Part shown: piece after piece, positions 4,776-25,782 of the stretch
Layout of the letters: every line of letters starts with the position of its first letter
Numbering within the stretch: position 1 is the stretch's first letter
Source of the DNA: Candidatus Parcubacteria bacterium
GTDB taxonomy: Bacteria > Patescibacteriota > Minisyncoccia > Minisyncoccales > JAGMDC01
Length of the DNA: 64,000 bases
Reading direction: 5' to 3'
NCBI GenBank assembly: GCA_023131895.1
Contig: JAGLYZ010000003.1
Location: 1,394-65,393 of the forward strand
Made by a program: the position numbers and the translations under genes
Notes under the pieces: model-generated
Database searches by the model: none
What the model saw: the letters and a program-made list of their open reading frames with translations, nothing else
Told to the model about the DNA's origin: nothing

Positions 4776-6305
4776 TTATTTCGCGTATTCTATTACTCTT
4801 TTTTCTCTAATTAAAGTTACCTTTATTTCGCCTGGGTATCTCAATTCCTCTTGAATTCTTTTCGCAATCTCCCGCGCCAGTTTATCAGCAGCTAAATCAT
4901 CAACCTCTTCCGGCCTGACAAAAACCCTGATTTCCCTGCCTGCCTGCAATGCCCATGCTTTTTCCACTCCGGAAAAAGCATTAGCAATATCCTCAAGTTC
5001 GCCGAGCCGTTTAAGATAATTCTCAACTGTGTCTTTTCTGGCTCCAGGTCTGGCTCCGGAAATAGCATCAGCTGTCTGGACTAAAACCGCTTCTATACTT
5101 TCTACCGCGTATTCTCCGTGATGGGATTTCATAGCATCAATAACTTCTTTTTCTATGCCAAATTTTTCTAAAATCTTTATGCCTATTTCAGTATGCGAAC
5201 CCTCAACTTTCCAGTCAAGCGCCTTCCCAATATCGTGCAAAAGACCTGCTTCCCGAGCTACTTTGGCATTGGCTCCAATTTCCGATGCTAAGGCGCCTGC
5301 TAAATGAGAAACTTCTATAGAATGAAGCAAAACATTTTGGCCGTAGCTTGTTCTAAAACGGAGCCTGCCTAAAAGCTGAATAATTTTTGGATTTAGGCCA
5401 ACAATGCCTGTTTCATATACTGCCTGTTCGCCTGCTTCTTTTATTTGTAAAACAATTTCTTCTTCTGCCTTAGATACTGCTTCTTCAATTTTCACTGGCT
5501 GAATCCTGCCATCTTGAATCAATCTATCTAAAGCTGTTTTGGCAATCTGCCTGCGGACAGGATCAAATCCTGAAATAACTACTACTCCCGGCGTTTCATC
5601 AACAACTATCTCTACTCCAGTTAAAGATTCTAGAGTTCTAATATTTCTTCCTTCTTTGCCGATAATTCTCCCTTTTATTTCATCATTAGGCAAAGAAACA
5701 TTTGTTGTAGTAATCTCCTGCGCTTGAGAAATAGAGCATTTTTGAATCGCTGAAGCTAAAATTTCTTTTGCTCTCTTTTCAAATTTCTCCATTCCCTCCC
5801 TTTCTAGATTCCTCATTCTTTCCAAAATTTCCAACTCGTTTTCTTTTTCAACCTGTTTTAATAATTCCTTTTCTGCTTCCTTTTGAGATAATTTAGAAAT
5901 TTTCTCCAGTTTTTCCACAATCTCTTTCTTATAATTCTCTAAATTCTCTTTTATTTGCTTCAGTTTTTCTACTTTTAGATGAAATTCCTTTTCCTTATCC
6001 TCGAAATCAGAAATTTTCCTGTCTAAAATATTTTCCCTTCTCAATAAAACCTGCTCTGTTTTTAAAATATTTCTTCTTCTTTGGTCTTCCTCTTTTTTTA
6101 CTGATTCTAATATAGCAGAAGATTTTTCTTTCGCATTAGATGTTAATTCTTCTGCTTCTTTCTTGGCTTGGGCAATCTTTTTTTGGATTTTTTCCTCCAA
6201 GCTGCCAATTTGCTTTTTGGCAATTGACTGGCGCGCATAGTAACCCAAAAACGAACCAACAGCCAAGCAAACTATGCCCACTAAAAGTGAGATTAATAAA
6301 GTCAT
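4776..6305 (-). CDS. rny: ribonuclease Y
   Basis: 509 aa with an N-terminal TM helix, a Lys/Glu-rich coiled coil, a KH motif GKEGRNIR and an HD domain LLHDIGKA. Confidence 0.9.
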   Translation of the reverse strand: MTLLISLLVGIVCLAVGSFLGYYARQSIAKKQIGSLEEKIQKKIAQAKKEAEELTSNAKEKSSAILESVKKEEDQRRRNILKTEQVLLRRENILDRKISDFEDKEKEFHLKVEKLKQIKENLENYKKEIVEKLEKISKLSQKEAEKELLKQVEKENELEILERMRNLEREGMEKFEKRAKEILASAIQKCSISQAQEITTTNVSLPNDEIKGRIIGKEGRNIRTLESLTGVEIVVDETPGVVVISGFDPVRRQIAKTALDRLIQDGRIQPVKIEEAVSKAEEEIVLQIKEAGEQAVYETGIVGLNPKIIQLLGRLRFRTSYGQNVLLHSIEVSHLAGALASEIGANAKVAREAGLLHDIGKALDWKVEGSHTEIGIKILEKFGIEKEVIDAMKSHHGEYAVESIEAVLVQTADAISGARPGARKDTVENYLKRLGELEDIANAFSGVEKAWALQAGREIRVFVRPEEVDDLAADKLAREIAKRIQEELRYPGEIKVTLIREKRVIEYAK

Positions 6306-8317: not shown

Positions 8318-8893
8318 TTACTTTTCTCTGATGCTCACCCCGCCTTCGCCGACAGCTATAATCTCAAAAACGTCTTTGAGCGAAGCGCTAAAAACTAAAT
8401 TATAATAATCATCTTTTTTTTCAAAAAGAGGAGTTTGATATCCTTTATCGGTTTTCACTATAAAAGATAAAATTTCACAATCACCTTTGGTAACTACACT
8501 TGTTTTAATTTCTAACTTGCCATTCTCGTATTTTTTCTCCAAGACCTCTGTCCATCCCTTGCATCTCTCCCTTGCTTCTTTTATTTTTTCTTTATCCGGT
8601 TTTGCCTGTTCCTTAACAATTGTTTCGTTCTCTCTGTCTTTAATTAAAATCCCGTATTTATCTCCGCAGTCATAAACACTGCAAGAAAAGAACTCTACTC
8701 CCTCGCAGAGAAAATAATAAGAGCAGTTCTTATCTAAACAGGAATCTGTTAGAAGCTGACAATTTTCAAAAGGAATCGGTTTTTCAACTGGACCAGGAAC
8801 TTGCTGACCAATAAAATAAAAAACTATGAGTAATAAAATTGTAAGAGAGAAGCTAATCCATATTATTAAATTTTTTTTCTTTATTGTTGCCAT
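8318..8893 (-). CDS. membrane-anchored cysteine-rich hypothetical protein
   Basis: 191 aa with an N-terminal TM helix and 8+ Cys. Its stop lies 1 nt before the start of the 608-aa gene (coupled). Confidence 0.55.
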   Translation of the reverse strand: MATIKKKNLIIWISFSLTILLLIVFYFIGQQVPGPVEKPIPFENCQLLTDSCLDKNCSYYFLCEGVEFFSCSVYDCGDKYGILIKDRENETIVKEQAKPDKEKIKEARERCKGWTEVLEKKYENGKLEIKTSVVTKGDCEILSFIVKTDKGYQTPLFEKKDDYYNLVFSASLKDVFEIIAVGEGGVSIREK

Positions 8894-9021
8894 ATTATTA
8901 TTATAAATTATTTTATTATCTTTTTTTATTATATCAAACTATAGAAAATAAAAAAGGTAAACTGTGGATAACTCAAAAACTAAAAATTGGAATTATTATC
9001 TTAATAAGCTATAATAAAATA

Positions 9022-11827: not shown

Positions 11828-13042
11828 CTATTTAGATTTATTAGATGTTTTTTTCTCTTTTGTCTTTTTCTCTTTTTTTTCTTCCTTGTCCGCCGTAGTC
11901 CCGCGTGGCGGGACGGGTTTTCCTTCTTCCGGGCTTCTAACATCTATTTTCCAGCCAGTTAATTTGGCTGCTAAACGGACATTTTGGCCATTTTTGCCAA
12001 TAGCTAAAGAAAGCTGATCTTCCGGCACCAAAACCAATGCCTTGTTTTTCGGCATAATCTTAACCTCTAAAACTTTGGCTGGAGACAAAGAATTCGCAAT
12101 ATATTTTTCAGGGGCATCAGAATATTCAATAATATCAATCTTTTCTCCGCCTAATTCATTAATCACTGCTGTAACCCTTGTTCCTCTTTGGCCAACCATA
12201 GCGCCAATAGGATCCATGCCTTCTGCGTCAGAACTAACAGCAATTTTTGAACGGGACCCAGCTTCTCTTGCAATTGACTTTATGAAAACCTGATCAGTTG
12301 AAATCTCTGGCACCTCCAACTCAAAAAGTTTTGAAACCATTTTGGGATAAGCCCTGGACAAAATAATCTGCGGTCCTTTAGGCGTGAGCTCCACATTTAA
12401 AACATAAAGCCGAAACCTCTGGTTAAGACGGTAAAATTCCCCTAAAATCTGCTCCTCTCTTGGCAAAATGCCAACTGTCTTGCCAATATCAAAGAAAACT
12501 GCTCTTTGCTCAATTCTCTGGACTAATCCAGAAATTATTTCTCCTATTTTTGATTCAAACTCCTGAAGAATTGACTCTCTTTCTACTTCTTTAATCTTTT
12601 GTAAAATTACCTGCTTGGCTGTCTGCGCCGCAATTCGGCCATAATCATCCTGTGTTTCTAAAGATAGCTCTAATTCATCCCCAACTTTTATCTTCGGCTC
12701 TATCTTTTTCGCTTCTTCAAATATAATATGCTTTTCTGGATTAAAACGGATTTTTTCCTCCTTGTCCGCCGAAGCTTCAGCAGAGGCGGATTCCTTTAAC
12801 TCCTCCAGTTCATCTTCAGAATAAATCATATCCTCTGAAACAACCATCTTTATCTGCCAAAATTTTACACTCCCTGTTTTTGGAGAAAGCTTAGCTTTAA
12901 TAATCTGCCCTTTTTTACCATAATCCTTTTTATAGGCAGCAGCCAATGCCTGCTCAATAACCTCAATCACTTTTTCTTGAGGGATGCCTTTTTCTTCAGC
13001 AATCTGTGTTACAGCTGATGTAAATGATTTAATTTCAAACAT
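11828..13042 (-). CDS. nusA: transcription termination/antitermination factor NusA
   Basis: 404 aa with N-terminal, S1 and two KH regions (...GMDPIGAMVGQRGTRV...AIGKNGQNVRLAAKLTGWKIDV...) and a Lys/Glu tail. Confidence 0.9.
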   Translation of the reverse strand: MFEIKSFTSAVTQIAEEKGIPQEKVIEVIEQALAAAYKKDYGKKGQIIKAKLSPKTGSVKFWQIKMVVSEDMIYSEDELEELKESASAEASADKEEKIRFNPEKHIIFEEAKKIEPKIKVGDELELSLETQDDYGRIAAQTAKQVILQKIKEVERESILQEFESKIGEIISGLVQRIEQRAVFFDIGKTVGILPREEQILGEFYRLNQRFRLYVLNVELTPKGPQIILSRAYPKMVSKLFELEVPEISTDQVFIKSIAREAGSRSKIAVSSDAEGMDPIGAMVGQRGTRVTAVINELGGEKIDIIEYSDAPEKYIANSLSPAKVLEVKIMPKNKALVLVPEDQLSLAIGKNGQNVRLAAKLTGWKIDVRSPEEGKPVPPRGTTADKEEKKEKKTKEKKTSNKSK

Positions 13043-13120
13043 AAAAAATTTTTAGAAAAGTCCGTTGAAAAGAACGGACTGTTTTTATAATAGCAAATCT
13101 AATAACTTTGTCAACTATTT

Positions 13121-13474
13121 GGTGGTGTTTGTTGGACGAAATCCGAACTTTCTTTGAGCAAAATCCAGAGGATTTTGCGGATTGAATCCCGCCCAGCGTT
13201 TCCGCCCGCCTTTGCTTCGCTACGGCGAGCAAAACAGAAAAATTTTCTAAACATTTTTTAATCGCCTGCCCCAAATTTTTTTCAATTAAGGAAAAGAAAA
13301 TTTTTCTGTTTTGATATTCTACTAACGCAGAATTGCGGAAACGCTTTCCCACCCCATAGTCCCGCTTTGCGGGACTGGCAAGCTGGCAAAAATTCATTTT
13401 CCCTACACCCCTTTTTCTTTTTGCCCGCCTGTTCTTTGACTCTGTCCTGAAAATTTTTTTGGCTGGCGTCGGGG
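13121..13474. repeat. structured ~350-bp repeat, copy X1 (body 13121-13377, 41-bp palindromic core 13385-13425, tail to 13474)
   Basis: The body is about 80% identical to the reverse complement of 21064-21314. 13378-13474 is 100% identical to the reverse complement of 14865-14961. Confidence 0.85.
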
Positions 13475-13501
13475 ATATATTAAGAGAGAGCAAACATAAG
13501 G

Positions 13502-13993
13502 TTACAAACCCAGCCGTTCAATCATATCTTTTTTCAGATTTATTGCAAAATTTCTCGCATCTTCTAAATCTTTTTTATTAGGTCTGCCTTTGTTTAGTCC
13601 ACCAGTAAATTTCAAAAATGGAATGTATCTATCAAAAAGATATGTATCAAACCCTCTACAAGAAAACTTCCCTACAATATCAAACCCCTTTTCTAACAAT
13701 TTTTTAAAAAGTGGCCGATGATAAAACCATACAGGACCTATACCTCTTGTTGAAAAAATAAATGCCTTTTTGTTTTTCATTATAGGTAGATTATCAACAA
13801 GAGCAAGTAATGCTTTATGCTGTTTAAAAAAATAAATTCCTGAGCCAAACCCAATGAGGTCGTATTTGGAAAGAGTATTCACCTCAATCTTATTGGGTCT
13901 CAATAATTCTGCATTAAAGATTTTAGCCATTTCTTTAGCAATTTTTTCTGTATTACCATTATGTATTGATATGTAAATAATTAGAGTTTTCAT
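13502..13993 (-). CDS. flavodoxin-like fold protein
   Basis: 163 aa: MKTLIIYISIHNGNTEKIAKEMA...IGFGSGIYFFK... Confidence 0.6.
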   Translation of the reverse strand: MKTLIIYISIHNGNTEKIAKEMAKIFNAELLRPNKIEVNTLSKYDLIGFGSGIYFFKQHKALLALVDNLPIMKNKKAFIFSTRGIGPVWFYHRPLFKKLLEKGFDIVGKFSCRGFDTYLFDRYIPFLKFTGGLNKGRPNKKDLEDARNFAINLKKDMIERLGL

Positions 13994-14451
13994 ATTAACA
14001 TTTCTAGATTTTTAAACTCCTCTTTTGCGTGTTTTTCAAGCGCCTCTTCAAATGCTTTTGTAAGATAAAATTTTTTCAAAAGCAAATCGATTATTTTACC
14101 GAATAATCCTTTGTATCCAACCTCTATTTTATGAATTACTTTCGCGCCTGTGTTCGTAGATTCGAAAGCTAACGAAAAATAACCAGAAATAAGCGATTTC
14201 CATTTATAAAGCAAAAATCTATTTGGTTCAACCTTTACAAGTTTTCCAGTAAGTTTTAATCTGAAGTGGTTAAATTGTTCATCTAAATAGACAATACTTC
14301 CCATTTCATTGGGTGTTCGTTTAATAGTCTTCCATGCTTTATGGGCGGGGTGCCACTTCTTATATTTCTCATCATCCAAATCGAGAATCCAGTTATATAT
14401 CTGTTCTGGAGTTTTGCCTTTTATCTCAATTTTCGTAATTATAATAATCAT
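13990..14451 (-). CDS. SRPBCC/START-like hypothetical protein
   Basis: 153 aa. Composition and length fit the SRPBCC fold. ATGA overlap with the flavodoxin-like gene. Confidence 0.4.
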   Translation of the reverse strand: MIIIITKIEIKGKTPEQIYNWILDLDDEKYKKWHPAHKAWKTIKRTPNEMGSIVYLDEQFNHFRLKLTGKLVKVEPNRFLLYKWKSLISGYFSLAFESTNTGAKVIHKIEVGYKGLFGKIIDLLLKKFYLTKAFEEALEKHAKEEFKNLEMLI

Positions 14452-14520
14452 ATTATCTCTCCCTCATAAGTTTATAGATTTTTTTATTTATTAGATTTTT
14501 CTAAAGCGAGGTTAGGAATT

Positions 14521-14733
14521 TCATTTTATTAAATCGCCAATATCAACCTTTAATGCTTTAGCGATTTTCGTTAAAGTTTCAATAGTGGGATTTGGATTTT
14601 CACCAGATTCAATTTTTACAATAGTATTATAAGCGACATCAGCAAACTTAGAAAGCTTATCTTGAGAAATCTCAAGTTTCTTTCTATAATGCTTGATATT
14701 TTTCGCTATTGTGGATAATCTTCTTGTTGACAT
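14521..14733 (-). CDS. XRE-family helix-turn-helix transcriptional regulator
   Basis: 70 aa: ...IKHYRKKLEISQDKLSKFADVAYNTIVKIESGENPNPTIETLTKIAKALKV... Confidence 0.85.
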   Translation of the reverse strand: MSTRRLSTIAKNIKHYRKKLEISQDKLSKFADVAYNTIVKIESGENPNPTIETLTKIAKALKVDIGDLIK

Positions 14734-14864
14734 TTGACTAATAATTTAATACTATTATAGTAGATGTTAGATATTAGATATAGTATATTTTTTCTCATTA
14801 ACTAATATAATGATACTAAATTATTTTAGTAATGTAAAGCAGCAAATTTATCTTTTTCGATTTG

Positions 14865-14999
14865 CCCCGACGCCAGCCAAAAAAATTTTCAGGACAGAGT
14901 CAAAGAACAGGCGGGCAAAAAGAAAAAGGGGTGTAGGGAAAATGAATTTTTGCCAGCTTGCTTATTCACTCTCTGATTTAGAATTTTATTGCTCCTGAT
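14865..14999. repeat. partial repeat copy X3 (tail + core 14914-14954 + 38-bp S1 arm 14962-14999)
   Basis: 14865-14961 is the exact reverse complement of 13378-13474. 14962-14999 matches the reverse complement of 20977-21014 at 35/38. Confidence 0.85.
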
Positions 15000-15005
15000 T
15001 TTTCT

Positions 15006-15087
15006 CTATAACGAATCGAGGATAAAAGAAATTCTGCGAGGCAGAATTTGGACGGAGCAAAGCGGAGTCTTTTATCCTCTGTTATCG
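15006..15087 (-). other. attC-like folded palindrome 4
   Basis: The minus strand reads CGATAAC-A-GAGGATAAAAGA-(38 nt)-TCTTTTATCCTC-GATTC-GTTATAG. Confidence 0.55.
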
Positions 15088-15170
15088 GAGTCTTGGCAAG
15101 CTGAGACCGAGCCACGAAGTGGCGAAGAGTTGCGGGGCTTTAATTTTTGTCATTAAAAGTTTTTTTCTCT

Positions 15171-16298
15171 TCACTCAGTTGTAGGATATAAAAGTCTTTC
15201 CCCTGATGCGACTCTCTTTACTAAATCTAAATTAACAAGTCTACAAAGGTCTTCTACTTTAGATTTAGCTGAATAGAAACCTAATGGATGATTTTCCATT
15301 GGAGGTATCCAAGAATCCTTATAGATAGTAACCCTAAGTTGTTCTATTTCTTGAATTTCATCATTATTGAGTTCATGATCAAAATATAAGAAAAGTTTCA
15401 TTTCGTCTGTGATATTTTTTTGCATGGCTTGCATTACAACTAGACTTTCAAATTTTTTGCTGTCTCTAATATCTTCTAGGTCACATTCAATTATAGATGG
15501 TTTTGCCTTGCATCCACATTGTTTACTGTTTTCCTCTGTAATTAAATCTGAATTTGAAATCCATGGACAGGGTTCTGATTCGTTTTTGGCTATTGCTTTA
15601 CAATACTCTTCACAGTTAATTTCTCTTTTTACCGTGCATTTGTTATCAACGCAAATAGGTGTGAATTTCTCTAAATTTAGGCAGTGAGAACATTGTGGTG
15701 GTGAGTAATAAGGGCAAGTTGGCGGGCACTTTGCTTTCATCTCCTGTTCGATTTTTTCTTTACTCTCTTTATTCACAACATTTGGTGATTCTCTTTTACA
15801 TGGGTCTGGAGGTGGACAACATCTAATAAAATCCAAAAATACACAATCTGAATCTTTTTCACAATATTTTTCATTATCTATGACTTTTGTCTTTTGGCTA
15901 CAACAATCAAAATAACATGTCCAGTCATATCCAAAAACAAAATTGCCTGATTTCCTTTCTTTTACAGAAGAAGCTTTAATAAATTTACAATCGCGATCAA
16001 TAAGATTAATATTTTTATATCTTTGCCATTCATCATACCAAACAGAGTCTTTTCCAATCTCCTTAGAGCACATCACTTGGATAAAATCCTTTAATCTATT
16101 TTCACACAATCTTTTTTGTTCTTCTGCGTTGGCTGGAGGACCTGCCTCATCGCCGGCACCCATTTCAAAGTAAATATTACTACAATCTACCTTTACCTGT
16201 TGAGTTGGTTGACTGCTCCAAAGCCACAATCCACCAACTACAACAATTCCAATTACTAAACAAACTATTCCAATTTTAATTTTCTTTTCCATAGTCAT
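15171..16298 (-). CDS. membrane-anchored cysteine-rich hypothetical protein (cassette ORF)
   Basis: 375 aa with about 30 Cys. N-terminal anchor ...VVVGGLWLWSSQPTQQV. Confidence 0.55.
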   Translation of the reverse strand: MTMEKKIKIGIVCLVIGIVVVGGLWLWSSQPTQQVKVDCSNIYFEMGAGDEAGPPANAEEQKRLCENRLKDFIQVMCSKEIGKDSVWYDEWQRYKNINLIDRDCKFIKASSVKERKSGNFVFGYDWTCYFDCCSQKTKVIDNEKYCEKDSDCVFLDFIRCCPPPDPCKRESPNVVNKESKEKIEQEMKAKCPPTCPYYSPPQCSHCLNLEKFTPICVDNKCTVKREINCEEYCKAIAKNESEPCPWISNSDLITEENSKQCGCKAKPSIIECDLEDIRDSKKFESLVVMQAMQKNITDEMKLFLYFDHELNNDEIQEIEQLRVTIYKDSWIPPMENHPLGFYSAKSKVEDLCRLVNLDLVKRVASGERLLYPTTE

Positions 16299-16348
16299 AA
16301 TTTAATTGTATTAAAGTTAATAAATATTTTCAAAAGCCTCGCCATTTC

Positions 16349-16426
16349 CGATAACGTATCCCAGATATACGAAGTCCCGAAGGGATTTGAGCGTAACGAA
16401 GTGAAGCCGTATATCTGGTGTTAGAT
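16349..16426 (-). other. attC-like folded palindrome 3
   Basis: The minus strand reads ATCTAAC-A-CCAGATATACG-(36 nt)-CGTATATCTGG-GATAC-GTTATCG. The TAA inside ATCTAAC is the stop codon of the upstream ORF. Confidence 0.55.
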
Positions 16427-17173
16427 GTTGTAAATTTTTAGGGATTTTGCGAATCTTCTCTCCCTGTACAACAACATACCGGCATAGATAACGCTTACAT
16501 TTAAAACAATTTGGGAAACTATTTCTATAAAAATTATCAATGGATTAAATCCAAAGAATATGACATAGTCAATCGTTCCATCTAATAAACCATATACTGG
16601 TGGTACCAAAAGAAATGTCTCAAGCCACATATAGATAAACGGTATCATAGCAATGCTAAATAATGTTGCTCGTCCTAACCAGTTGTTTTTTATATCAAAA
16701 TGTAATGCTAACAATATGTTCAGCAGCATAAAAATAACGGGTATCCGAATTGAAGTTAATATAAAAACGAATTCTTCTAATCCCATCAGGTCCCCTAAAA
16801 TATATGAGCCAAACCACAGTGTAAAGGCGGGGAATAATCCGGGATGCTCTAATGCCATTTCAGGTGTCAATGAAGATGTACTTAAAGCGTCTATAGCCCC
16901 CCATGATGTTAAAATCACAAAAAACCAGATTGGAACCCCAATCAGACCACGATATAAGTCCCACTTATACAATTTTTTAAGATTACCTTCTGGTGGTTTA
17001 CTCATTAACATACTGATAAACAGAATTGTAAAGCCAGCAACAATAAATACCATTCCTAATGCGCCAATACCCGCTTGATCTTCTGTAATTTGCGGCTTTG
17101 ACATTGTATCCAAAACCATGAATATACCAATAATTCCTAAAATCAAACCAATTGCAAATATGATTTTTTTCAT
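16421..17173 (-). CDS. polytopic membrane protein (hypothetical, cassette ORF)
   Basis: 250 aa with about 7 hydrophobic helices. Confidence 0.55.
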   Translation of the reverse strand: MKKIIFAIGLILGIIGIFMVLDTMSKPQITEDQAGIGALGMVFIVAGFTILFISMLMSKPPEGNLKKLYKWDLYRGLIGVPIWFFVILTSWGAIDALSTSSLTPEMALEHPGLFPAFTLWFGSYILGDLMGLEEFVFILTSIRIPVIFMLLNILLALHFDIKNNWLGRATLFSIAMIPFIYMWLETFLLVPPVYGLLDGTIDYVIFFGFNPLIIFIEIVSQIVLNVSVIYAGMLLYRERRFAKSLKIYNI

Positions 17174-17244
17174 AATTAATCCTATTGAAAATCTTTATTA
17201 ATAAAACTTTTCCCGAGCAAAATCCCGTTAAGAAAATTTATTGC

Positions 17245-17345
17245 ATCTAACATCTGGGATATACGAAGTTTTTCTGGAACGAAGTGGAAGAAAAATTTGG
17301 GTGAGGGGCGAGCCGAGCCCCGAACCGTATATCCTCTTGTTGTAC
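17245..17345 (-). other. attC-like folded palindrome 2
   Basis: The minus strand reads GTACAAC-AAG-AGGATATACG-(60 nt)-CGTATATCCC-AGAT-GTTAGAT. Confidence 0.5.
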
Positions 17346-17522
17346 GCCCCGACGACTGAAGGGAGGAGAGCGCAGCGTGGCTTGAGTTCAAAAAATATTT
17401 TTCGTTCTTATCCATCAAATAGGCTTTCGTTTATTTCTTATAAATTTGATTTTTTCCTATTTTAAAAATGGAAGAGGGGTTAGGGGTGAATTTCATTTTT
17501 TATGGTCAACCATATCATTATA

Positions 17523-18344
17523 TTATTGATGTTTATCAAGATTAACAACTTCAAACTTTGGATAATGAACTACAAATTGCGGAACACTAACATTTGAGTC
17601 CAATAATATTTTTTTTGTCTTATCAATAAATTCATTAAACTGCGTTTCATCCACCAGTATTTGATAATTTCTCAGGTAGTTTTCTCTAAGTATCTTTTTA
17701 AATTCTCCACCAGCGGCTTTTAAATTCATCATTTCAACAATGTAGTAATCTGCAAAATTTTTTGTTTTTGAAATCAATAATTTGATATTGATTAATTCAG
17801 GAATTACTGGGGATATAAAACAAAAAGTTTTAATCCTATTATTTTTTAGAGTTTTCAACGCCTTTATTCTTTCTTCATTACTGGGAGAATGCGGTTCAAA
17901 TAAATCTTTTGTATTTCCTTCAAAAGTATTAATTGTCAAACCGACTTCTATTTTTTTGAATTGTTTTAATAAATCAATGTCCCTTGTTATTAAATCTGAT
18001 TTTGTTAATATTGAAAGTTCTGTGCGTTTGTCCATGCTTTGCAAAATACGGCGTGTCAACTGCAATTCTTTTTCTGCTGGCTGATAAGGGTCGGAGACAG
18101 AAGACATAATGACTTTTCCATTAACAATTTTTTTTGCGAGTTCAGGAGCATTGATTTTCGCTTCTACCCAATCACCCCATTTCCCGTGATTTTTCCACCG
18201 GCACATAAATTTTGCGTAGCAATAAGTACAAGCATATTCACAGCCAATATATTGGTTTATTACATACTTTGCACTAGGAGTTTTCGTTTTTGTAAATATA
18301 CTCTTTGCATTAATTTTAATTATTTTGGCAGTCATAGTAATCAC
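17523..18344 (-). CDS. radical SAM protein, SplB/DNA-photolyase-like (COG1533-type)
   Basis: 273 aa with a CxxxCxxC cluster motif GCEYACTYCYAKF near the N-terminus. Confidence 0.7.
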   Translation of the reverse strand: MITMTAKIIKINAKSIFTKTKTPSAKYVINQYIGCEYACTYCYAKFMCRWKNHGKWGDWVEAKINAPELAKKIVNGKVIMSSVSDPYQPAEKELQLTRRILQSMDKRTELSILTKSDLITRDIDLLKQFKKIEVGLTINTFEGNTKDLFEPHSPSNEERIKALKTLKNNRIKTFCFISPVIPELINIKLLISKTKNFADYYIVEMMNLKAAGGEFKKILRENYLRNYQILVDETQFNEFIDKTKKILLDSNVSVPQFVVHYPKFEVVNLDKHQ

Positions 18345-18850
18345 TTAGAAGCACTTGCCTTACAGAGAGATCTCATTTTGCATTGAGAGCATCCTTTCTT
18401 TCTTCCGAATTGGTTTATTATCATAATCACAATAAAACCCAATAGAGAGATTCCACCAGAAATTAAAAATTCTCTATTCAAAAATATAGCAATTGGAATA
18501 ACAATAATTGGAATGAGTGTTAATAATCCCCAAGTCATGCCTGCTAATTTCATTCCGAGTTTGTAATCTCCTGATTTTTGTTTAAACTGGCATGAACTTA
18601 ATTTGCTCCAGCCACTTCCGCATAATTTACCATAATAATAGCAATGTGTGCAAAGATGTTTTCTTAGGACAATTCCCAACATTACTAATGCAAATGACAA
18701 ATAGAGTATGGAAATAATAGGGAATCCTGCAAATTTAAATGCCGACATTCCGTACGCCGCTAATCCAAACCATAATAACAACAGCGTGTTGGTTAAAATT
18801 ACTGATGATTTTGGATAATTCTCCAATCCTTTTTCGTATAGTTTTTCCAT
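18341..18850 (-). CDS. membrane protein with CxxC motifs (hypothetical)
   Basis: 169 aa with 4 TM segments, plus CTHCYYYGKLCGSGW and GCSQCKMRSLC. It overlaps the radical SAM start by 4 nt. Confidence 0.5.
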   Translation of the reverse strand: MEKLYEKGLENYPKSSVILTNTLLLLWFGLAAYGMSAFKFAGFPIISILYLSFALVMLGIVLRKHLCTHCYYYGKLCGSGWSKLSSCQFKQKSGDYKLGMKLAGMTWGLLTLIPIIVIPIAIFLNREFLISGGISLLGFIVIMIINQFGRKKGCSQCKMRSLCKASASK

Positions 18851-18852
18851 AA

Positions 18853-19182
18853 TTACTTTTCTCCAAAGCGACCAATAAAATAACCCATCAAACTTCCGAT
18901 AATAAGATTTGTAACCAGCATTGGAACTAGTTCTTGGGGACTGCCAGCAACTACTACAATCATCATTGGAAAGGCTATTAAAAAGAAAATTAGCGTTCCT
19001 TTTAAAGTATTATTCAATTTTAGGTTTGATGTTGATATGAGAAAACCGCCGATAACACACATCAAAAATGCTGATACTAATGTGTCCCAAGTCATTTTCA
19101 TAAGCATCATAGGGATTATATCAACTATACCAAAAATAATACCAATGATAAGTCCTACTTTTGTTTTGCTCATTTTTTCCAT
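18853..19182 (-). CDS. small membrane protein (hypothetical)
   Basis: 109 aa with 3-4 TM segments. Its stop lies 2 nt before the next start. Confidence 0.5.
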   Translation of the reverse strand: MEKMSKTKVGLIIGIIFGIVDIIPMMLMKMTWDTLVSAFLMCVIGGFLISTSNLKLNNTLKGTLIFFLIAFPMMIVVVAGSPQELVPMLVTNLIIGSLMGYFIGRFGEK

Positions 19183-19381
19183 AATCTTTACCTCTTTATT
19201 AAATATAAATATCGTTATTATATAAGTTTTGTTTTTCTTTTCAATTTATAAGTTGTTTTCGTAACGGAGTGGAGAAAACACAAATTATCCCCCTCTTTTG
19301 TTTCAGAAAAAATCAAATTTATTTCCCTTTTTAGAAAGCCCGTCATTCTTTTGTCTTTTAGAAAAATATTTTTTGAATTGC

Positions 19382-19472
19382 GTATAACATATAGTGCTAA
19401 AAGAAGTTGTTGCGTAGCAACAATTTGGATGGAACGACCGCAGGGAGTGAAATCTTTTAGCACTTGTTAAGT
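19382..19472 (-). other. attC-like folded palindrome 1
   Basis: The minus strand reads ACTTAAC-A-AGTGCTAAAAG-(50 nt)-CTTTTAGCACT-ATAT-GTTATAC. The plus strand ends in GTTAAGT (fits GTTRRRY). Confidence 0.55.
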
Positions 19473-19501
19473 GAAGTATGACGCAGCCGCCGAGTTAAAA
19501 T

Positions 19502-19945
19502 CTATTTCATCTTCTCGAGTTCCATTATGTTGTTAGGAGGTGTGGTAGCTTCATGAACTGTTATTTTACCTGTGAAGTCCACAAATACGTATCTGCATGG
19601 GTGTGCCCAGTTGGCCCATGGAGCGTCATCAACGAAGAAGAACCAACCCTCCTTCTGTGGGAGTTCAATTGAACTGTGCCAACTTTCTATGGTTGTGCCA
19701 GCTTTCACTGGTTTGGGACCTACATATACCCATTTCCCTTCGGTACTTCCATTCAAAAGCTCTGATATGACCAGATTGTAAGCATCCGTCTTGGATATGT
19801 TTTTATCTGCTTCAAATTCTTTCCATTCCTCAACTTGATCTAGTTGTTGACTATTCCAAATCCACAATCCTCCAACTAAAACAATTACCATAATCAAAAT
19901 TCCAATAAAGATTTTTGTTTTTGAATTCATAATAGTTTTCCTCAT
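19502..19945 (-). CDS. membrane-anchored/exported hypothetical protein (first cassette ORF)
   Basis: 147 aa. The N-terminal anchor ...VLVGGLWIWNSQQLDQV is shared with the 375-aa ORF. Confidence 0.55.
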   Translation of the reverse strand: MRKTIMNSKTKIFIGILIMVIVLVGGLWIWNSQQLDQVEEWKEFEADKNISKTDAYNLVISELLNGSTEGKWVYVGPKPVKAGTTIESWHSSIELPQKEGWFFFVDDAPWANWAHPCRYVFVDFTGKITVHEATTPPNNIMELEKMK

Positions 19946-20010
19946 AATTTTATTGTTAGACTTATTTATTAATCTTATGAGTTTATATGCTCGGCGGCGA
20001 GTAATATTTC

Positions 20011-20086
20011 ATTTAACTCGTTTCTATACGAATTGAATGTATAATATCGACCTTTTGTTGCATATTATACGAACTTAATGTATAAT
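20011..20086. promoter_or_regulatory. attI-like region: GTTAAAT core plus two 21-bp direct repeats
   Basis: Minus-strand GTTAAAT at 20017-20011. TATACGAATTGAATGTATAAT (20025-20045) and TATACGAACTTAATGTATAAT (20066-20086) match 18/21, and each has inverted TATAC/GTATA ends. Confidence 0.45.
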
Positions 20087-20146
20087 TATTAATGAAATTA
20101 CTAATAATTACTTAACTAACTTTAGTTTACTAATTTTTATAAAATT

Positions 20147-20962
20147 ATGCAACAAAAATATTTGGAACAAACAAGGCGGGAATTAAAATTAAGAAATTAT
20201 AGTTTCAAAACCATAAAGGCCTATCTCGGTTGTTTAAAAGAATATTTTGATTTTAAAAAATTTAATTTAGAAAAAATAGACGAGGAAAATATAAAGCAGT
20301 TTTTATTAAATAAACAAGACAAAAATTATTCTTCACAAACGATAAATCTTTACTTAAATGCAATAAAATTTTTTTACCGCGAAGTATTGAAAATTCCCGA
20401 AAAGATAAATTTGAAATTCGCCAAGCGAAGTAAAAAACTACCGATTGTTCTATCAAGAGAAGAAATTGAAAACATCATTGAGTCAATCAAAAATCCAAAG
20501 CATAAATTAATAATCTCTTTAGCTTATGGCGCCGGCTTGAGAATCAGTGAAGTTATTAGTCTAAAAGTAAAAGATGTCGATTTAGAAGAATTAACTATCC
20601 ATCTTAAAAACGCCAAAGGCAAAAAGGACAGAATCACTATTTTCCCGGAAAAAATTAGAAGAGATATTCAAGGTTTAATAGCCAGAAAAAATTCGGACGA
20701 TTATCTTTTTGAAAGCGAACGGGGCGGAAAATTAACCGAGCGGACAGCCCAAAAAGTTTTTGAAAACGCACTCCGAGGAACGGGTATAAAAAAAGACGCT
20801 ACATTCCATTCGTTAAGACACAGCTTTGCAACACATTTATTAGAAAATGGTGTTGATGTCAGGTATGTGCAGGAACTTTTAGGGCATCAGAATATCAGAA
20901 CAACTCAAATTTATACTCAGGTAACAAATCCAAAACTCAAAAACATTAAAAGTCCGTTATGA
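20147..20962 (+). CDS. tyrosine site-specific recombinase (IntI/Xer-like, lacks the IntI-specific insertion)
   Basis: 271 aa: ...YSFKTIKAYLGCLKEYF..., KKLPIVLSREEI, LAYGAGLRISEVISLKVKDVDL, KGKKDR, HSLRHSFATHLLENGVDVRYVQELLGHQNIRTTQIYTQV...IKSPL. The R..K..HxxR..H..Y catalytic pattern is present. Confidence 0.9.
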   Translation: MQQKYLEQTRRELKLRNYSFKTIKAYLGCLKEYFDFKKFNLEKIDEENIKQFLLNKQDKNYSSQTINLYLNAIKFFYREVLKIPEKINLKFAKRSKKLPIVLSREEIENIIESIKNPKHKLIISLAYGAGLRISEVISLKVKDVDLEELTIHLKNAKGKKDRITIFPEKIRRDIQGLIARKNSDDYLFESERGGKLTERTAQKVFENALRGTGIKKDATFHSLRHSFATHLLENGVDVRYVQELLGHQNIRTTQIYTQVTNPKLKNIKSPL

Positions 20963-20976
20963 TTAAAACGGGAAAA

Positions 20977-21314
20977 ATCAGAAGCAATAAAACTCTAAAT
21001 CAGAAAGTGAATAAGCTTAGTAAGCAAAAAGAAAAAGGGATGTGGGGGAAATGAATTTTTGCCCGCCTGCTGTCCCTCAAAACGGGACTGGGGTTGGGAG
21101 CGTTTCCGCAATTCTGCGTTAGCAGAATATCAAAACAGAAAAATTTTCTTTTCCTTAATTGAAAAAAATTTTGCGAGGGGCTATTAAAAAAATGTAGAGA
21201 AAATTTTTCTGTTTTGCTCGCCGTCAGGCGAGTGAAAACGCTGGGTCGGGGTTCAAAAATCCGCTTGCGGATTTTTCTCAAAATGAGTTCGGATTTCGTC
21301 CAGCAAACACCACC
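20977..21314. repeat. structured repeat copy X2 (S1 arm 20977-21014, core 21023-21063, inverted body 21064-21314)
   Basis: Reverse-complement match to the X1 body. The S1 arm and core are shared with X3. Confidence 0.85.
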
Positions 21315-21398
21315 ACTTCGCTTTTTGTAATTATAGATTAATGTTTATTATGCTCGTGTTTGCACCACGTAGCTCCGAGGCGTAACCGAGGAGCGAAG

Positions 21399-21472
21399 TG
21401 GTGGACCCAGCGAGAGTCGAACTCGCGACATCGCAATGCCATTGCGATATTTTACCACTAAACTATGGGCCC
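21399..21472 (-). tRNA. tRNA-Ala (anticodon GGC), CCA encoded
   Basis: Acceptor GGGCCCA/TGGGTCC with the G3:U70 identity pair, anticodon arm TCGCA-ATGGCAT-TGCGA, T loop TTCGACT, then ACCA. Confidence 0.85.
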
Positions 21473-21982
21473 TTATTTTTTTCTATCTAAAATTTTTTTG
21501 CTTTTCTTTTCAACATCCTTGCGAAATGCTGATAAAATTTTCCTTCCTAGAATAATATGCTGTTCAATAACTTTTCTCCAGATATGATTCAGGTAAATAA
21601 TATTAAAAAGAACCACTGAAATAACCACTACCGCATCAAGACTGTGCCTAAGCCAATAATTATCATCTAAATGAAGCCACATTCCGAACTCGTCAAAAGC
21701 TAAAGCTAATCCAATGCCGTAAATTTTAGCTATTTTCAAGCGATGTTCTTCTTTTTCGCTTACCAGAAGCAAATAGCCGACAACAGCTAAAGTAAAAATG
21801 CCAATATTAAAATGATGGACTTCTATGCCTTTTATCATTAAAGACAGCTCTGGGATATACCCATAAGTCCAGGCATAAACTAATATTCTTACAATAACAA
21901 AAGTGGCAAAAAAATAAACCAAAACAACAAAAGGCACCTTCCTATTATGTTTTCCAAAAAGATTATAATAAAGTTTGTTCAT
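21473..21982 (-). CDS. membrane protein (hypothetical), sandwiched between two tRNA genes
   Basis: 169 aa with 4 TM segments. The ATG lies 7 nt after tRNA-Arg, and the stop codon abuts tRNA-Ala base 1. Confidence 0.55.
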   Translation of the reverse strand: MNKLYYNLFGKHNRKVPFVVLVYFFATFVIVRILVYAWTYGYIPELSLMIKGIEVHHFNIGIFTLAVVGYLLLVSEKEEHRLKIAKIYGIGLALAFDEFGMWLHLDDNYWLRHSLDAVVVISVVLFNIIYLNHIWRKVIEQHIILGRKILSAFRKDVEKKSKKILDRKK

Positions 21983-21989
21983 ATTACTG

Positions 21990-22061
21990 TGCCCTTGACA
22001 GGAGTCGAACCTGTATCAGAGGTTTAGGAAACCCCAATTCTATCCATTAAACTACAAGGGC
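21990..22061 (-). tRNA. tRNA-Arg (anticodon CCT)
   Basis: Acceptor GCCCTTG/CAAGGGC, anticodon arm GGGGT-TTCCTAA-ACCTC, T arm ACAGG-TTCGACT-CCTGT. Confidence 0.8.
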
Positions 22062-25176: not shown

Positions 25177-25251
25177 GGTGGACGACGGGGAACGATCCCG
25201 CATCCCTAGCTCCACAAGCTAGTACTCTAAACCAATTGAGCTACATCCACC
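25177..25251 (-). tRNA. tRNA-His (anticodon GTG) with G-1; atypical T loop
   Basis: G-1 + GTGGATG/CGTCCAC + C73, anticodon arm CTAGC-TTGTGGA-GCTAG, T arm GCGGG-ATCGTTC-CCCGT (A54/T58 instead of T54/A58). Confidence 0.7.
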
Positions 25252-25261
25252 ATAAAACAAA

Positions 25262-25575
25262 AAACTCCCGTTCCTCTTACAAGATAAGAAAAATCATTAT
25301 AGATTTTTCCCAGAGGAACGAGAGTTTTAATATAAAATTCCCGCGGTCCCATCCTCGTTTCCTAACACCTTAAAAGGTAGCAGGACACTTGATTAAGTTA
25401 ACGATGAGTGACACCGTCTCAGCTTGTATCTTCTTAGGATTTTCTTGCCGAGCTGCTCCAGAGGCGTGTTTAGAAATTTTTTAGCGCTTGGCTTTCACTA
25501 CCCCAAGCTCGCTTTAGCTTATATTATATTTCTTACTATTCCTCTGTACAAACGCATTTCGTATTTAATTTTAAT
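25262..25575 (-). ncRNA. T-box riboswitch leader, His specifier (CAC)
   Basis: Stem I: CAGAGG/CCUCUG base, specifier loop AAUAGUA / AAA-CAC-G, distal GCUUGG-GGUAGUGAAAG-CCAAGC. Antiterminator: GAGGA-UGGGACC-GCGGGA..UCUCGU-UCCUC. Terminator: AAAACUCUCGUUCCUCU..AGAGGAACGGGAGUUUUUU. Confidence 0.85.
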
Positions 25576-25586
25576 CTCTATTATAA

Positions 25587-25614
25587 AGTATATGGATTCT
25601 AAAAAATTTGTCAA
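25587..25614 (-). promoter_or_regulatory. candidate promoter of the T-box leader
   Basis: The minus strand reads TTGACA-16 nt-TATACT. Confidence 0.5.
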
Positions 25615-25625
25615 GTTTTTTTGTG

Positions 25626-25698
25626 GGCGAACGAGGAGATTCGAACTCCCCCTTAGATCTCCACAGGATCTAGTGCTAACCACTACACTACGTTCGCC
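25626..25698 (-). tRNA. tRNA-His (anticodon GTG), canonical
   Basis: G-1 + GCGAACG/CGTTCGC + C73, anticodon arm AGATC-CTGTGGA-GATCT, T arm GGGAG-TTCGAAT-CTCCT. Confidence 0.8.
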
Positions 25699-25708
25699 AT
25701 TTATCATA

Positions 25709-25782
25709 TGCCCTCGGGAGGACTCGAACATCCACTCTTGACCTTAGAAGGGTCCTGCTTTATCCAATTAAGCTACGAGGGC
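25709..25782 (-). tRNA. tRNA-Arg (anticodon TCT)
   Basis: Acceptor GCCCTCG/CGAGGGC and anticodon loop CTTCTAA. There is one mismatch each in the anticodon and T stems. Confidence 0.7.

Follow-up and report, generated by a model that had tools for sequence, protein, structure and literature searches.

A likely integron-type gene-capture platform with folded cassette-end sites in Patescibacteria

A compact tyrosine recombinase gene that diverges from a row of ORFs, each followed by an imperfect palindrome, raises the question of whether an ultra-small bacterium captures genes as integrons do. We analyzed such a locus in a 64-kb stretch of DNA (here called the window) from a Candidatus Parcubacteria MAG (CPR/Patescibacteria). 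The recombinase gene occupies positions 20147 to 20962 (plus strand), and the array consists of four co-oriented minus-strand ORF blocks, each ending in a folded site. A preliminary description, made from the sequence alone, had called this an integron-like platform. The genes, four blocks, palindromes, sequences, and coordinates that it reported were all present, and its reading is supported by comparative evidence that was not available to its author. On that evidence, the platform is likely an integron-type gene-capture system.

Cassette 1 (19388 to 20016, minus strand) comprises an ORF for a 147-aa protein with an N-terminal membrane helix (19502 to 19945) and a 91-nt attC-like site (19382 to 19472) scoring 64 bits with a covariance model. 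Because the ~140-nt leader following this cassette adjoins the docking site (attI) in other genomes, cassette 1 is placed between attI and that leader. Cassette 2 (17251 to 19387, minus strand) contains a leader (19248 to 19381), three abutting ORFs (block 19182 to 17523), a trailer (17346 to 17500), and a 101-nt attC-like site (17245 to 17345; 69.5 bits) that is 94% identical to one in a related locus (L063). Its ORFs encode proteins of 109 aa (18853 to 19182), 169 aa (18341 to 18850), and 273 aa (17523 to 18344). The last is a radical SAM protein resembling TIGR04470 “mobile pair protein B” (167 bits, below the cutoff), and a 45% homologue of it sits within a cassette of locus L014. The leader and trailer represent the same element in opposite orientations, forming inverted ~115- to 135-nt repeats that start at the R-box heptamers. 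Cassette 3 (16355 to 17250, minus strand) carries an ORF for a 250-aa membrane protein (16421 to 17173), the TAA stop of which lies inside the R'' heptamer (ATCTAAC) of its own 78-nt site (16349 to 16426; 56.7 bits). Cassette 4 (15012 to 16354, minus strand) carries an ORF for a Cys-rich 375-aa protein with an N-terminal membrane helix (15171 to 16298) and an 82-nt site (15006 to 15087; 59.6 bits). Family searches returned no family match for the ORFs of cassettes 1, 3, and 4. Cassette lengths in the window were 0.6 to 2.1 kb.

The four sites share one polarity, with 1 to 4 nt after xxxTAAC and 4 to 5 nt before GTTAxxx; this polarity and the stop codon in the third site had both been claimed in the preliminary description, and both held. 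When folded as single-stranded DNA, the sites gave z scores of −2.5 to −5.6 relative to shuffles, on either strand. A motif scan of the full 64 kb found no further hairpin with TAAC/GTTA ends and the same asymmetry. The covariance model, run over the 64 kb with filters off, produced only four strong matches (56.7 to 69.5 bits), i.e., the four sites, which had belonged to its training set, and two weak matches (22.9 and 18.7 bits) inside flanking repeats. An inverted repeat brackets the platform. Its left arm (a'; 14960 to 15004) adjoins R' of the last attC and is 93% complementary to positions 20972 to 21016, and its right arm (a-b-c; 20972 to 21315) begins 9 nt past the recombinase stop codon. 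Within the right arm, positions 20972 to 21016 match 15004 to 14960, and positions 21024 to 21315 match 13424 to 13120 at 83%. No further copies were found within the 64 kb; the bracketing repeat is also present in loci L004, L008, and L147.

About 160 related loci contain the same system, and sequence comparison shows that both the position and the strand of the sites in them are strictly tied to the recombinase. A covariance model of the folded sites (R1) detected 108 of them across 80 genome loci, without exception on the strand opposite the recombinase; 35 of the 108 had been used in constructing the model. The region upstream of the recombinase (320,843 bp) held 106 of them, versus 2 in 495,402 bp downstream, and at least one site was found in 45 of the 51 loci with >1.5 kb of upstream sequence. 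After completing R1, we fetched and searched a second set of 80 metagenome loci, two or more of which duplicate loci of the genome set (further overlap was unchecked). This set yielded 94 sites, every one of them within the 219,184 bp upstream; the 251,013 bp downstream had none. Of 43 loci with >1.5 kb upstream, 41 contained a site. For the 160 loci combined, 200 opposite-strand sites lay upstream versus 2 in the larger downstream sequence (746 kb). The longest ORF was co-oriented with the array in 101 of 107 cassettes, and the median cassette length was 952 bp (range across the 160 loci, 0.15 to 5.7 kb). Promoter-like matches were not more frequent than expected by chance.

Comparison of the sites showed that their structure, not their sequence, is conserved. 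Median pairwise identity between sites was only ~55 to 59%, with compensatory changes at 10 of the 12 main-stem pairs. The interior is Y-shaped with a conserved CCCAAAT, and its two inner hairpins form from differing sequences (median, 7 bp each; z scores of −1.8 and −3.1). Heptamers fitting at six or more of seven positions were found in 89 of 97 sites for RYYYAAC and in 76 of 97 for GTTRRRY. No Rfam family matched the folded sites, and we found no prior description of the system in Rfam or in the literature searched.

The attI region (20011 to 20146, minus strand) was recognized by its direct repeats, a conserved motif, contig ends, and a heptamer match to the first cassette. Its crossover heptamer, GTTAAAT (20011 to 20017, minus strand), is preceded by TTCGTATA-GAAACGA, and the two copies of a 21-nt direct repeat, ATTATACATT(C/A)A(T/G)TTCGTATA, lie at 20025 to 20045 and 20066 to 20086. 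The motif CGYATA-NAAAC-SA-GTTRNNN occurs ~100 to 140 nt upstream of the recombinase ATG in 46 of 80 related genome loci as well as in the window. Palindromic units, ATTATAC-N9-GTATAAT, are also found within attI, and three contigs (L041, L059, and L080) terminate at the attI GTT. In 36 of 64 loci, the tail of the attI heptamer equals R'' of the first cassette (P = 4e-25); an attI heptamer that varies with the first cassette is integron behavior. This region, the Y-shaped site interior with CCCAAAT, and the bracketing inverted repeats had been missed in the preliminary description.

A similar relationship was observed along the arrays. Of 43 adjacent pairs from the genome loci, 16 had an R' whose complement equaled R'' of the next site (P = 1.7e-8), as did 21 of 34 from the metagenome loci (P = 4.8e-17), against a background of ~7% for random pairs and 5 to 9% for the two ends of a single site. 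In the window, R' of site 2 (GTTAGAT) and R' of site 3 (GTTATCG) are exact complements of R'' of sites 3 (ATCTAAC) and 4 (CGATAAC), respectively, and the mismatches along the array number 1, 1, 0, and 0. These comparisons place the crossover and the cassette boundaries in GTT, with the GTTxxxx tail matching xxxxAAC of the next site and not its own partner (P values from ~1e-8 to 1e-25). About 40% of adjacent pairs violate the rule, exceptions that we attribute, without proof, to missed sites or mutation.

Sequence comparison also showed that the same cassette occurs at attI and at internal positions and that arrays turn over between relatives. One cassette (91% identical) lies at attI in L032 and in the second position, behind an attC, in L014; the homology begins at GTTATAT, and the left flank is half an attC in one and attI in the other. 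The GTTAxxx that precedes the leader GCAATTCAAAAAATATTTTTC belongs to an attC in the window, L040, L044, and L014 and to attI in L063, L078, L037, and L036. An ORF and its downstream hairpin move as a unit (L014/L032; the trailer plus the attC of cassette 2). Locus L004 is syntenic with the window on both flanks (ClpP, NusA, and a membrane protein at 98%, 90%, and 89% aa identity, respectively), but the shared chromosomal position is occupied there by two unrelated cassettes.

The 271-aa recombinase has all of the catalytic residues (R132, K157, H221, R224, H247, and Y256), which are invariant across 29 homologues. Pfam assigned it Phage_integrase (1e-44) and a SAM-like N-domain. Its best NCBIfam match, and the sole one above its own cutoff, was XerA_Arch (241.7 bits; cutoff, 220); the integron integrase family TIGR02249 matched in two stretches at 226.3 bits, below its cutoff of 265, and was the top NCBIfam match for one homologue (L066). 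The best PDB sequence match was 2a3v, the Vibrio integron integrase VchIntIA (IntI4). It aligned in two pieces (4 to 198 with 4 to 203 and 195 to 271 with 241 to 317), which left chain residues ~204 to 240 unmatched, i.e., the roughly 37-aa IntI-specific insert is missing. Structural comparison also ranked 2a3v first, followed by XerA. The recombinase is unusually conserved (61 to 93% aa identity across Patescibacteria lineages) and full length in nearly all related loci, a pattern expected of a housekeeping gene more than of a typical intI.

In the mechanism that we propose, the recombinase would recombine the attI beside its own gene with the folded attC-like sites at cassette ends, and the attI crossover would fall at G|TTAAAT. 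A cassette would consist of TTxxxx, the ORF(s), xxxxAAC-A, a 12-bp stem, the Y-shaped interior, the return stem, RAAC, and G. Both insertion at attI and excision by attC × attC recombination would exchange DNA within the GTT of the 3' heptamer, and the heptamer tail, once integrated, would therefore belong to the following cassette. The recombinase as catalyst is inferred, not shown by experiment, and the same holds for the action of the sites as folded single strands, for which strand folds, and for replicative resolution as in integrons. Because the helix with which IntI reads extrahelical bases is absent from the recombinase, site polarity is probably read from the 1-nt versus 4-nt spacer asymmetry, the conserved CCCAAAT junction, or both. 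Against the integron reading, the recombinase falls under the curated integron-integrase cutoff without the IntI domain, reported in the literature to be necessary for IntI activity, and the site geometry departs from that of canonical attC. The preliminary description had raised both the missing insert and the noncanonical spacers, and these caveats held; its view that standard integron detectors would miss the system remains an expectation only. Neither experiments nor read-level evidence (circles or alternative junctions) are available.

The recombinase might instead be the chromosome dimer resolvase of the lineage, like XerS, XerH, or XerA, with the conserved site beside its gene being dif and the cassettes being hairpin elements that hijack the resolvase, in the way that the single-stranded DNA of CTX phage exploits XerCD, so that gene capture is a by-product. 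This Xer-dif explanation overlaps mechanistically with the integron reading and differs in the primary purpose of the enzyme. In its favor are the XerA_Arch match, the compact protein without the IntI insert, its conservation and intactness, the palindromic units in attI, and the grouping of candidate-phyla recombinases as Xer related (“Cand”) by Smyshlyaev et al. (2021); xerS and xerH, moreover, adjoin their dif sites. However, dif is expected at the terminus, and the window shows no reversal of GC skew or gene orientation; of the 27 loci that had 7 kb of sequence to either side, 10 kept the skew sign and 1 reversed it. The genomic neighborhood is unconserved even between recombinases that are 85 to 92% identical, the attI heptamer follows the first cassette, and no such sites were found beside plasmid XerA-like genes. 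We regard this explanation as unlikely, although the recombinase doubling as the Xer of the cell is not excluded.

Alternatively, the palindromes might be terminators or structured 3' RNAs of ordinary genes, near the recombinase by coincidence or among genes shuffled by homologous recombination. The sites do lie 3' of ORFs in the sense direction, hairpin B resembles a terminator by score at sites 1 and 4, 35 of 38 sites keep a G·T wobble at the stem end in the sense strand, and the conserved interior motif recalls RNA motifs. This explanation is nevertheless all but ruled out by the absence of sites from the remainder of the 64 kb and, save for the two genome-set matches, from the sequence downstream of the recombinases; by junctions between attI and cassettes, which have only ~AAC..GTTA in common, too short for homologous recombination; by the heptamer shift, a crossover signature; by the lack of an Rfam family; and by an antisense strand that folds equally or slightly better. 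Transposon-like modules, bounded by terminal inverted repeats (heptamers or leader/trailer) and moved by another enzyme with the hairpins merely between them, would account for the complementary heptamers flanking each ORF block, the inverted repeats flanking cassette 2, and those bracketing the platform. No transposase was found within or near the arrays, however; ORF and hairpin travel jointly, the sites face one constant way relative to the recombinase, and attI is a common entry point, all of which makes such modules very improbable. Three observations had been named in the preliminary description as refuting it. Palindromes throughout the genome and a lack of cassette variation were not borne out, given the absence of further sites from the 64 kb, the counts in the 160 loci, and the L004 and L014/L032 comparisons; a sole Xer homologue paired with dif is not excluded, the skew data notwithstanding.

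Among known systems, XerA, XerS/difSL, and XerH/difH resemble the platform in their compact recombinase (~270 aa), which includes its best curated family match, and the targets of XerS and XerH adjoin the gene, as here. Unlike the platform, where no terminus signature was seen, these systems act on chromosome dimers, resolving them at a double-stranded dif of ~28 to 31 bp in the terminus, and they are not known to have cassette arrays or folded sites. CTX phage and other IMEX, which rely on the host Xer to enter dif, join a folded single-stranded hairpin site to a double-stranded chromosomal site through one strand exchange by an Xer-type enzyme, and they build tandem arrays at dif. They are, however, phages or islands that bring their own genes for replication or packaging, whereas the units here are gene cassettes whose sites form a single family and which have a dedicated recombinase next to them. 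In Acinetobacter, pdif modules are genes bounded by inverted recombinase sites in varied contexts, but the sites are plasmid-borne, double-stranded XerC/D sites of 28 bp, without hairpins, attI, or an adjacent recombinase gene. Compared with integrons (the chromosomal integron of V. cholerae and class 1), the platform has a recombinase that lacks the IntI-specific domain, scores under the TIGR02249 cutoff, and shows much stronger conservation than is usual for IntI. In its sites, the interval between the R and L boxes is base paired and carries a 3- to 4-nt bulge on one side (A versus RAAC) instead of single extrahelical bases, the site interior is a Y-shaped junction with CCCAAAT instead of a free variable loop, and the host range is Patescibacteria. 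As in integrons, a tyrosine recombinase gene diverges from a co-oriented cassette array, and the adjoining attI is a simple site with upstream direct repeats. Cassettes of ~1 kb, mostly of unknown function, end in imperfect palindromes bounded by RYYYAAC...GTTRRRY and conserved in fold over sequence; the crossover is in GTT, with heptamer tails going with the next cassette; the arrays of relatives differ; and the nearest solved structure is that of an integron integrase.

The recombinase gene (20147-20962, +; 271 aa) and the minus-strand ORF blocks upstream of it form a platform that is integron-like in every respect testable by comparison; recombinase catalysis and single-strand folding are inferred from sequence comparison, without biochemical data. 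The preliminary description had proposed a capture platform of this kind with a recombinase lacking the insertion specific to integron integrases (IntI). The positions it gave for the recombinase ORF, the four ORF blocks (cassettes 1 to 4), and the four palindromes at their ends (attC-like sites 1 to 4: 19382-19472, 17245-17345, 16349-16426, and 15006-15087) held exactly. The window, which belongs to a Candidatus Parcubacteria MAG, has a G+C content of 34.6%, and the platform is surrounded by ordinary genes encoding ClpP, NusA, tRNAs, an HtrA-like protease, and HisRS. Several tRNA genes were located at 21402-21472, 21990-22061, and 25177-25782, and a T-box leader (25311-25561, -; 93.2 bits, barely at the gathering score) precedes the HisRS gene region.

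The recombinase comprises a Phage_integrase catalytic domain and a SAM-like N-domain, and its catalytic residues (R132, K157, H221, R224, H247, and Y256) are invariant across 29 homologues. Its placement in NCBIfam is between the XerA_Arch and integron integrase families. The XerA_Arch model NF040815, which carries the NCBI name "site-specific tyrosine recombinase/integron integrase," gave 241.7 bits, a score that reaches the curated Xer cutoff (220). With the integron-integrase model TIGR02249 (cutoff, 265), the score was 226.3 bits in a match split into two stretches, and homologues scored 230.8 and 200.8 bits. Scores against the bacterial XerC and XerD models (189 and 188 bits) fell far short of the cutoffs (335 and 330, respectively). 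The top PDB sequence match was the Vibrio integron integrase structure (2a3v), in an alignment that omits 2a3v residues ~204-240 (i.e., the IntI-specific insert). This structure was also the top fold match of an AlphaFold model of the recombinase (pLDDT 78), followed by the XerA structures 5hxy and 4a8e. Relatives are abundant: a threshold of E<=1e-30 admits 7,453 proteins, of which the top 120 share 75-100% identity with the query.

The attC-like sites were first picked out by a motif scan, upstream of the recombinase and on the opposite strand. Their consensus in the ORF direction is RYMTAAC-A-NNNNATATSNGG-[hairpin A]-CCCAAAT-[hairpin B]-TCSNATATNNNN-RAAC-GTTRNRY, opened by an xxxxAAC heptamer (R'') and closed by a GTTxxxx heptamer (R'). 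In an alignment of 38 sites, compensatory changes were observed in 10 of the 12 base pairs of the main stem. The inner hairpins A and B (median of 7 bp each; z of -1.8 and -3.1, respectively) are formed by unrelated sequences, and the fold of the site is therefore Y-shaped. The median pairwise identity between sites was 55-59%. Site lengths were 78-101 nt in the window and 52-197 nt (median, 99) among 97 sites, of which 89 matched RYYYAAC and 76 matched GTTRRRY at >=6/7 positions. The sites described here fit the definition of an integron attC, an imperfect inverted repeat of ~57-141 nt that has RYYYAAC and GTTRRRY at its ends and conserves its structure and not its sequence. They depart from the canonical attC geometry, in which the central spacer is unpaired and polarity is set by single extrahelical bases, and show an asymmetric bulge instead. 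A single A follows AAC in 95 of the 97 sites, RAAC or ATAC typically precedes GTT, and the intervening 4 bp are paired. Both strands of the sites fold, the antisense strand being more stable by 1-2 kcal/mol. Wobble pairs left the folding strand undecided; one conserved G·T aside, the G·T and A·C counts were balanced. No Rfam family matched the sites at gathering thresholds, and none was found up to E=5 across 12900-21500.

Linkage of the sites to the recombinase was evaluated with a covariance model built from the 38-site alignment. With filters off, a search of the whole window returned the four sites alone, plus two weak matches in flanking repeats. The genome set consisted of 80 related recombinase loci from species-representative genomes (nearly all Patescibacteria, of many classes; recombinases 61-93% identical). 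At E<=0.01, it contained 108 matches, 35 of them training sequences of the model. All 108 lay on the strand opposite the recombinase, with 106 in 320,843 bp of upstream sequence and 2 in 495,402 bp of downstream sequence. A set of 80 metagenome loci, searched once the model was complete and including at least two duplicates of genome loci, gave 94 matches on the opposite strand, all within the 219,184 bp of upstream sequence and none in the 251,013 bp downstream. Among loci with >1.5 kb of upstream sequence, a site was present in 45 of 51 genome loci and 41 of 43 metagenome loci. For the pooled sets, 202 of 202 matches were on the opposite strand and 200 of 202 were upstream. The longest ORF ran in the array direction in 101 of 107 cassettes (median cassette, 952 bp). 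The arrangement is that of integrons, in which intI is divergent from a co-oriented cassette array. Three plasmid XerA-like genes used as a negative control (Chryseobacterium, Clostridium, and Fulvitalea; 39-40% identical) had no sites, and the IMG/VR loci, meant as a further control, proved to hold arrays. The sole two model matches downstream of a recombinase gene, at 3607-3696 and 4896-4994 of locus L068, have the orientation of the upstream array and may hint at a second platform past the contig end.

Of the 80 genome loci, 46 carry a putative docking site (attI) ~100-140 nt upstream of the recombinase ATG, with the motif CGYATA-NAAAC-SA-GTTRNNN in the cassette direction. The window has it as well, reading TTCGTATA-GAAACGA-GTTAAAT (heptamer, 20011-20017). 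The motif looks like the 3' half of an attC (TCGTATATCCC-AGAT-GTTAGAT). A second copy of ATTATACATTNANTTCGTATA precedes the window attI, 41 nt off (direct repeats 20025-20045 and 20066-20086); attI1 is likewise a simple site with upstream direct repeats. Integron exchange occurs between G and TT, so that the GTTRRRY tail of a site is part of the next cassette. It follows that R' of one site, when complemented, should equal R'' of the following site and not the R'' of its own site. Exact heptamer matches were found for 16 of 43 adjacent pairs in the genome set (p=1.7e-8), for 21 of 34 in the metagenome set (p=4.8e-17), and at 36 of 64 loci between the attI heptamer and R'' of the first cassette (p=4e-25). 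The corresponding controls were ~7% for random pairs and 5/97 and 7/80 for the two ends of one site. In the window, there was one mismatch from attI to site 1 and one from site 1 to site 2, and none from site 2 to site 3 (GTTAGAT/ATCTAAC) or from site 3 to site 4 (GTTATCG/CGATAAC), against 3, 3, 3, and 1 mismatches between the own ends of sites 1 to 4, respectively. Three contigs (L041, L059, and L080) terminate at the predicted crossover (...AACCAGTT, ...CCAGTTGT, and ...CGAGTTG, respectively), as is expected of assemblies if populations differ there. On the basis of these sequence comparisons, attI beside the recombinase gene is the entry point, with crossover at GTT, as in integrons. A search for a σ70-like promoter (Pc) gave 18 matches versus 26.8 by chance, i.e., fewer than expected. 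Plausible σ70-like matches on the minus strand, for which no promoter is claimed, are at 20092-20064, 19244-19217, and 16333-16305.

Comparisons among loci supported the mobility of cassettes. L014 and L032 share a 705-nt cassette (91% identity) that occupies the second position, behind an attC, in L014 and the first position, at attI, in L032. Homology between the two loci begins at GTTATAT, and the sequences to its left are unrelated. This homology reaches into the downstream attC; the ORF and its attC therefore move together, as in integrons. In L063, L078, L037, and L036, a conserved leader of ~140 nt (GCAATTCAAAAAATATTTTTC...) comes after the GTTAxxx of attI; in the window (past site 1), L040, L044, and L014, it comes after the GTTAxxx of an attC. 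Since the leader abuts attI elsewhere and an attC here, the window's cassette 1 sits inserted between attI and the leader-bearing cassette. The closest comparison was with L004, a Minisyncoccales MAG with a 93% identical recombinase and both flanks in common with the window: ClpP and NusA (98 and 90% amino acid identity, respectively) on one side and attI, the recombinase, a tRNA, and a membrane protein (~89% nucleotide identity) on the other. At the same place, L004 has an array of two cassettes unrelated to the four of the window. Cassette gain, loss, and reordering are thus supported, by comparative evidence only. An absence of cassette variation would have refuted the preliminary description, and arrays do vary in all three comparisons (window and L004, L014 and L032, and leader positions). 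An apparent variant within cassette 1 in L002 was a scaffolding run of N and not a polymorphism. Proteins of the window cassettes mostly have no family, with the exception of a radical SAM protein akin to "mobile pair protein B," a 45% homologue of which is encoded in an L014 cassette. The N-terminal membrane-helix regions of cassettes 4 and 1 (16208-16283 and 19846-19921) share 72% DNA identity over 76 nt, the rest of the proteins being unrelated.

Inverted repeats (14960-15004 versus 20972-21016, extended by 13120-13424 versus 21024-21315) bracket the whole platform, last attC and recombinase stop codon included. One arm adjoins R' of the last attC, and the other begins 9 nt past the recombinase stop codon, which itself reads GTTATGA. 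Brackets were also found in three relatives (L004, 5942-6037 versus 8824-8918; L008, 2269-2481; and L147, 800-1154). Across the window and these relatives, the repeats measure 45 to ~350 nt, without further copies in the 64 kb. Near-perfect palindromes (CAAAACAGAAAAATTTTCT...AGAAAATTTTTCTGTTTTG) within the bracketing repeats at 13229-13314 (+) and 21130-21217 (-) have weak attC-model scores (22.9 and 18.7 bits) and could be degenerate sites or chance matches. A 31-aa ORF at 20959-21054, called as a gene in the source annotation, overlaps the recombinase stop codon and crosses repeat arm "a." Inverted copies of a ~115-135-nt leader element (19248-19388, -, and 17339-17500, +) flank the genes of cassette 2 and start at the R-box heptamers, with ~50 nt extra in the trailer copy. 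The element holds TTGATT...GATAAT and a hairpin like attC hairpin B, and it also frames unrelated genes in L063, L078, L061, L044, and L037. Separately, perfect 97-nt inverted repeats (13378-13474 and 14865-14961) enclose flavodoxin, SRPBCC, and HTH genes (13475-14864). This segment is missing from the syntenic L004 and may be invertible, recently inserted, or an assembly artifact.

A second clade of compact recombinases on IMG/VR contigs (L084-L101; e.g., L095, 1214-4688, and L093, 3296-5815) also has divergent upstream arrays, detected by the same covariance model. These recombinases (261-265 aa) are 33-40% identical to that of the window and score under the XerA cutoff. Their sites are closely spaced (ACATAAC-A-AGGTGTATAAGA...TCTCATACACCC-AACC-GTTATAA), and their attI ends in TATATATAATA-GTTAxxx. 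The clade has ~7,000 relatives in the protein collection. Recombinases of the Patescibacteria type found in the window, with their sites, also occur in MAGs labeled as archaea or as unrelated bacteria, including L063 (Methanosarcinaceae), L020 (Altiarchaeales), and many Gammaproteobacteria/Pseudomonadales/Actinomycetota. An L063 attC is 94% identical to site 2 of the window. These loci are probably misbinned or mislabeled, and transfer across lineages is not excluded.

The palindromes could belong to a REP or terminator family, in which case they would follow ordinary genes all over the genome. They did not do so within the window or in the downstream stretches of related loci, and this explanation was ruled out by the absence of sites elsewhere in the window and, the L068 matches aside, downstream of recombinases. 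Alternatively, the recombinase could be a housekeeping Xer, as its compactness, XerA score, and very high conservation suggest; a published classification of tyrosine recombinases (Smyshlyaev et al. 2021) places candidate-phyla recombinases as Xer related. An Xer target is expected at the replication terminus. At ~20 kb in the window, the skew did not change sign and no gene-orientation switch occurred at the locus, and of the 27 loci that extend 7 kb in both directions, 10 kept the sign and 1 flipped. The windows were short, and cassettes are foreign DNA. On this short-window skew evidence alone, the locus does not fit a terminus, and a dif site at the terminus was set aside for lack of a skew switch at the locus. 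The skew does change near 55 kb, where gene orientation also switches and no dnaA is present. The neighborhood of the recombinase is not conserved beyond L004. No paralogue of the recombinase was found in the 64-kb window; the search for paralogues and dif covered this window and ±8 kb of related loci, not whole genomes. The possibility that the recombinase is the sole Xer homologue and pairs with dif, which would count against the preliminary description, is therefore not excluded, although the locus shows no terminus skew signature. A dual role as Xer and integron integrase also remains possible.

We lean, without certainty, toward a bolder reading of the integron-like platform. Here, it would represent an undescribed integron lineage in Patescibacteria and at least one unidentified low-GC clade, with a compact XerA/IntI-intermediate recombinase that lacks the IntI-specific domain and with Y-shaped attC sites read via a one-sided bulge and a conserved junction. 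Such a lineage could be an ancestral form behind classical integrons, or an Xer doubling as an integron integrase. The literature searched, subscription journals being outside its scope, gave no account of integrons or attC sites in candidate phyla radiation (CPR) bacteria, and no CPR integron is described in the integron papers and the one tyrosine-recombinase classification examined. If true, this reading would open a very large unsurveyed pool of cassette genes in the CPR. The genomes of CPR bacteria are tiny, with few mobile elements known in them, and a widespread capture platform would help explain variation in their surface and membrane proteins. A compact enzyme with well-defined attI and attC sites is also directly testable and perhaps useful as a tool.

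Compared with known integrons, the recombinase lacks the IntI-specific additional domain around patch III, a defining feature of integron integrases (Ghaly 2022; Messier & Roy 2001) that corresponds to the skipped residues of 2a3v (~204-240). Archaeal integrons reportedly keep this domain. The recombinase also remains under the TIGR02249 cutoff (226.3 versus 265 bits). We therefore file the platform as an integron-like variant and not as a member, because it lacks the IntI domain, the curated cutoff score, and the canonical attC geometry. The same cassette logic appears here without the IntI domain, and the domain would therefore not be required for integron-type recombination. Integrons are defined and searched for via this domain and the canonical attC model, and current surveys may miss a whole branch of such elements. 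The platform is a concrete candidate for the route from Xer-like recombinases to integrons.
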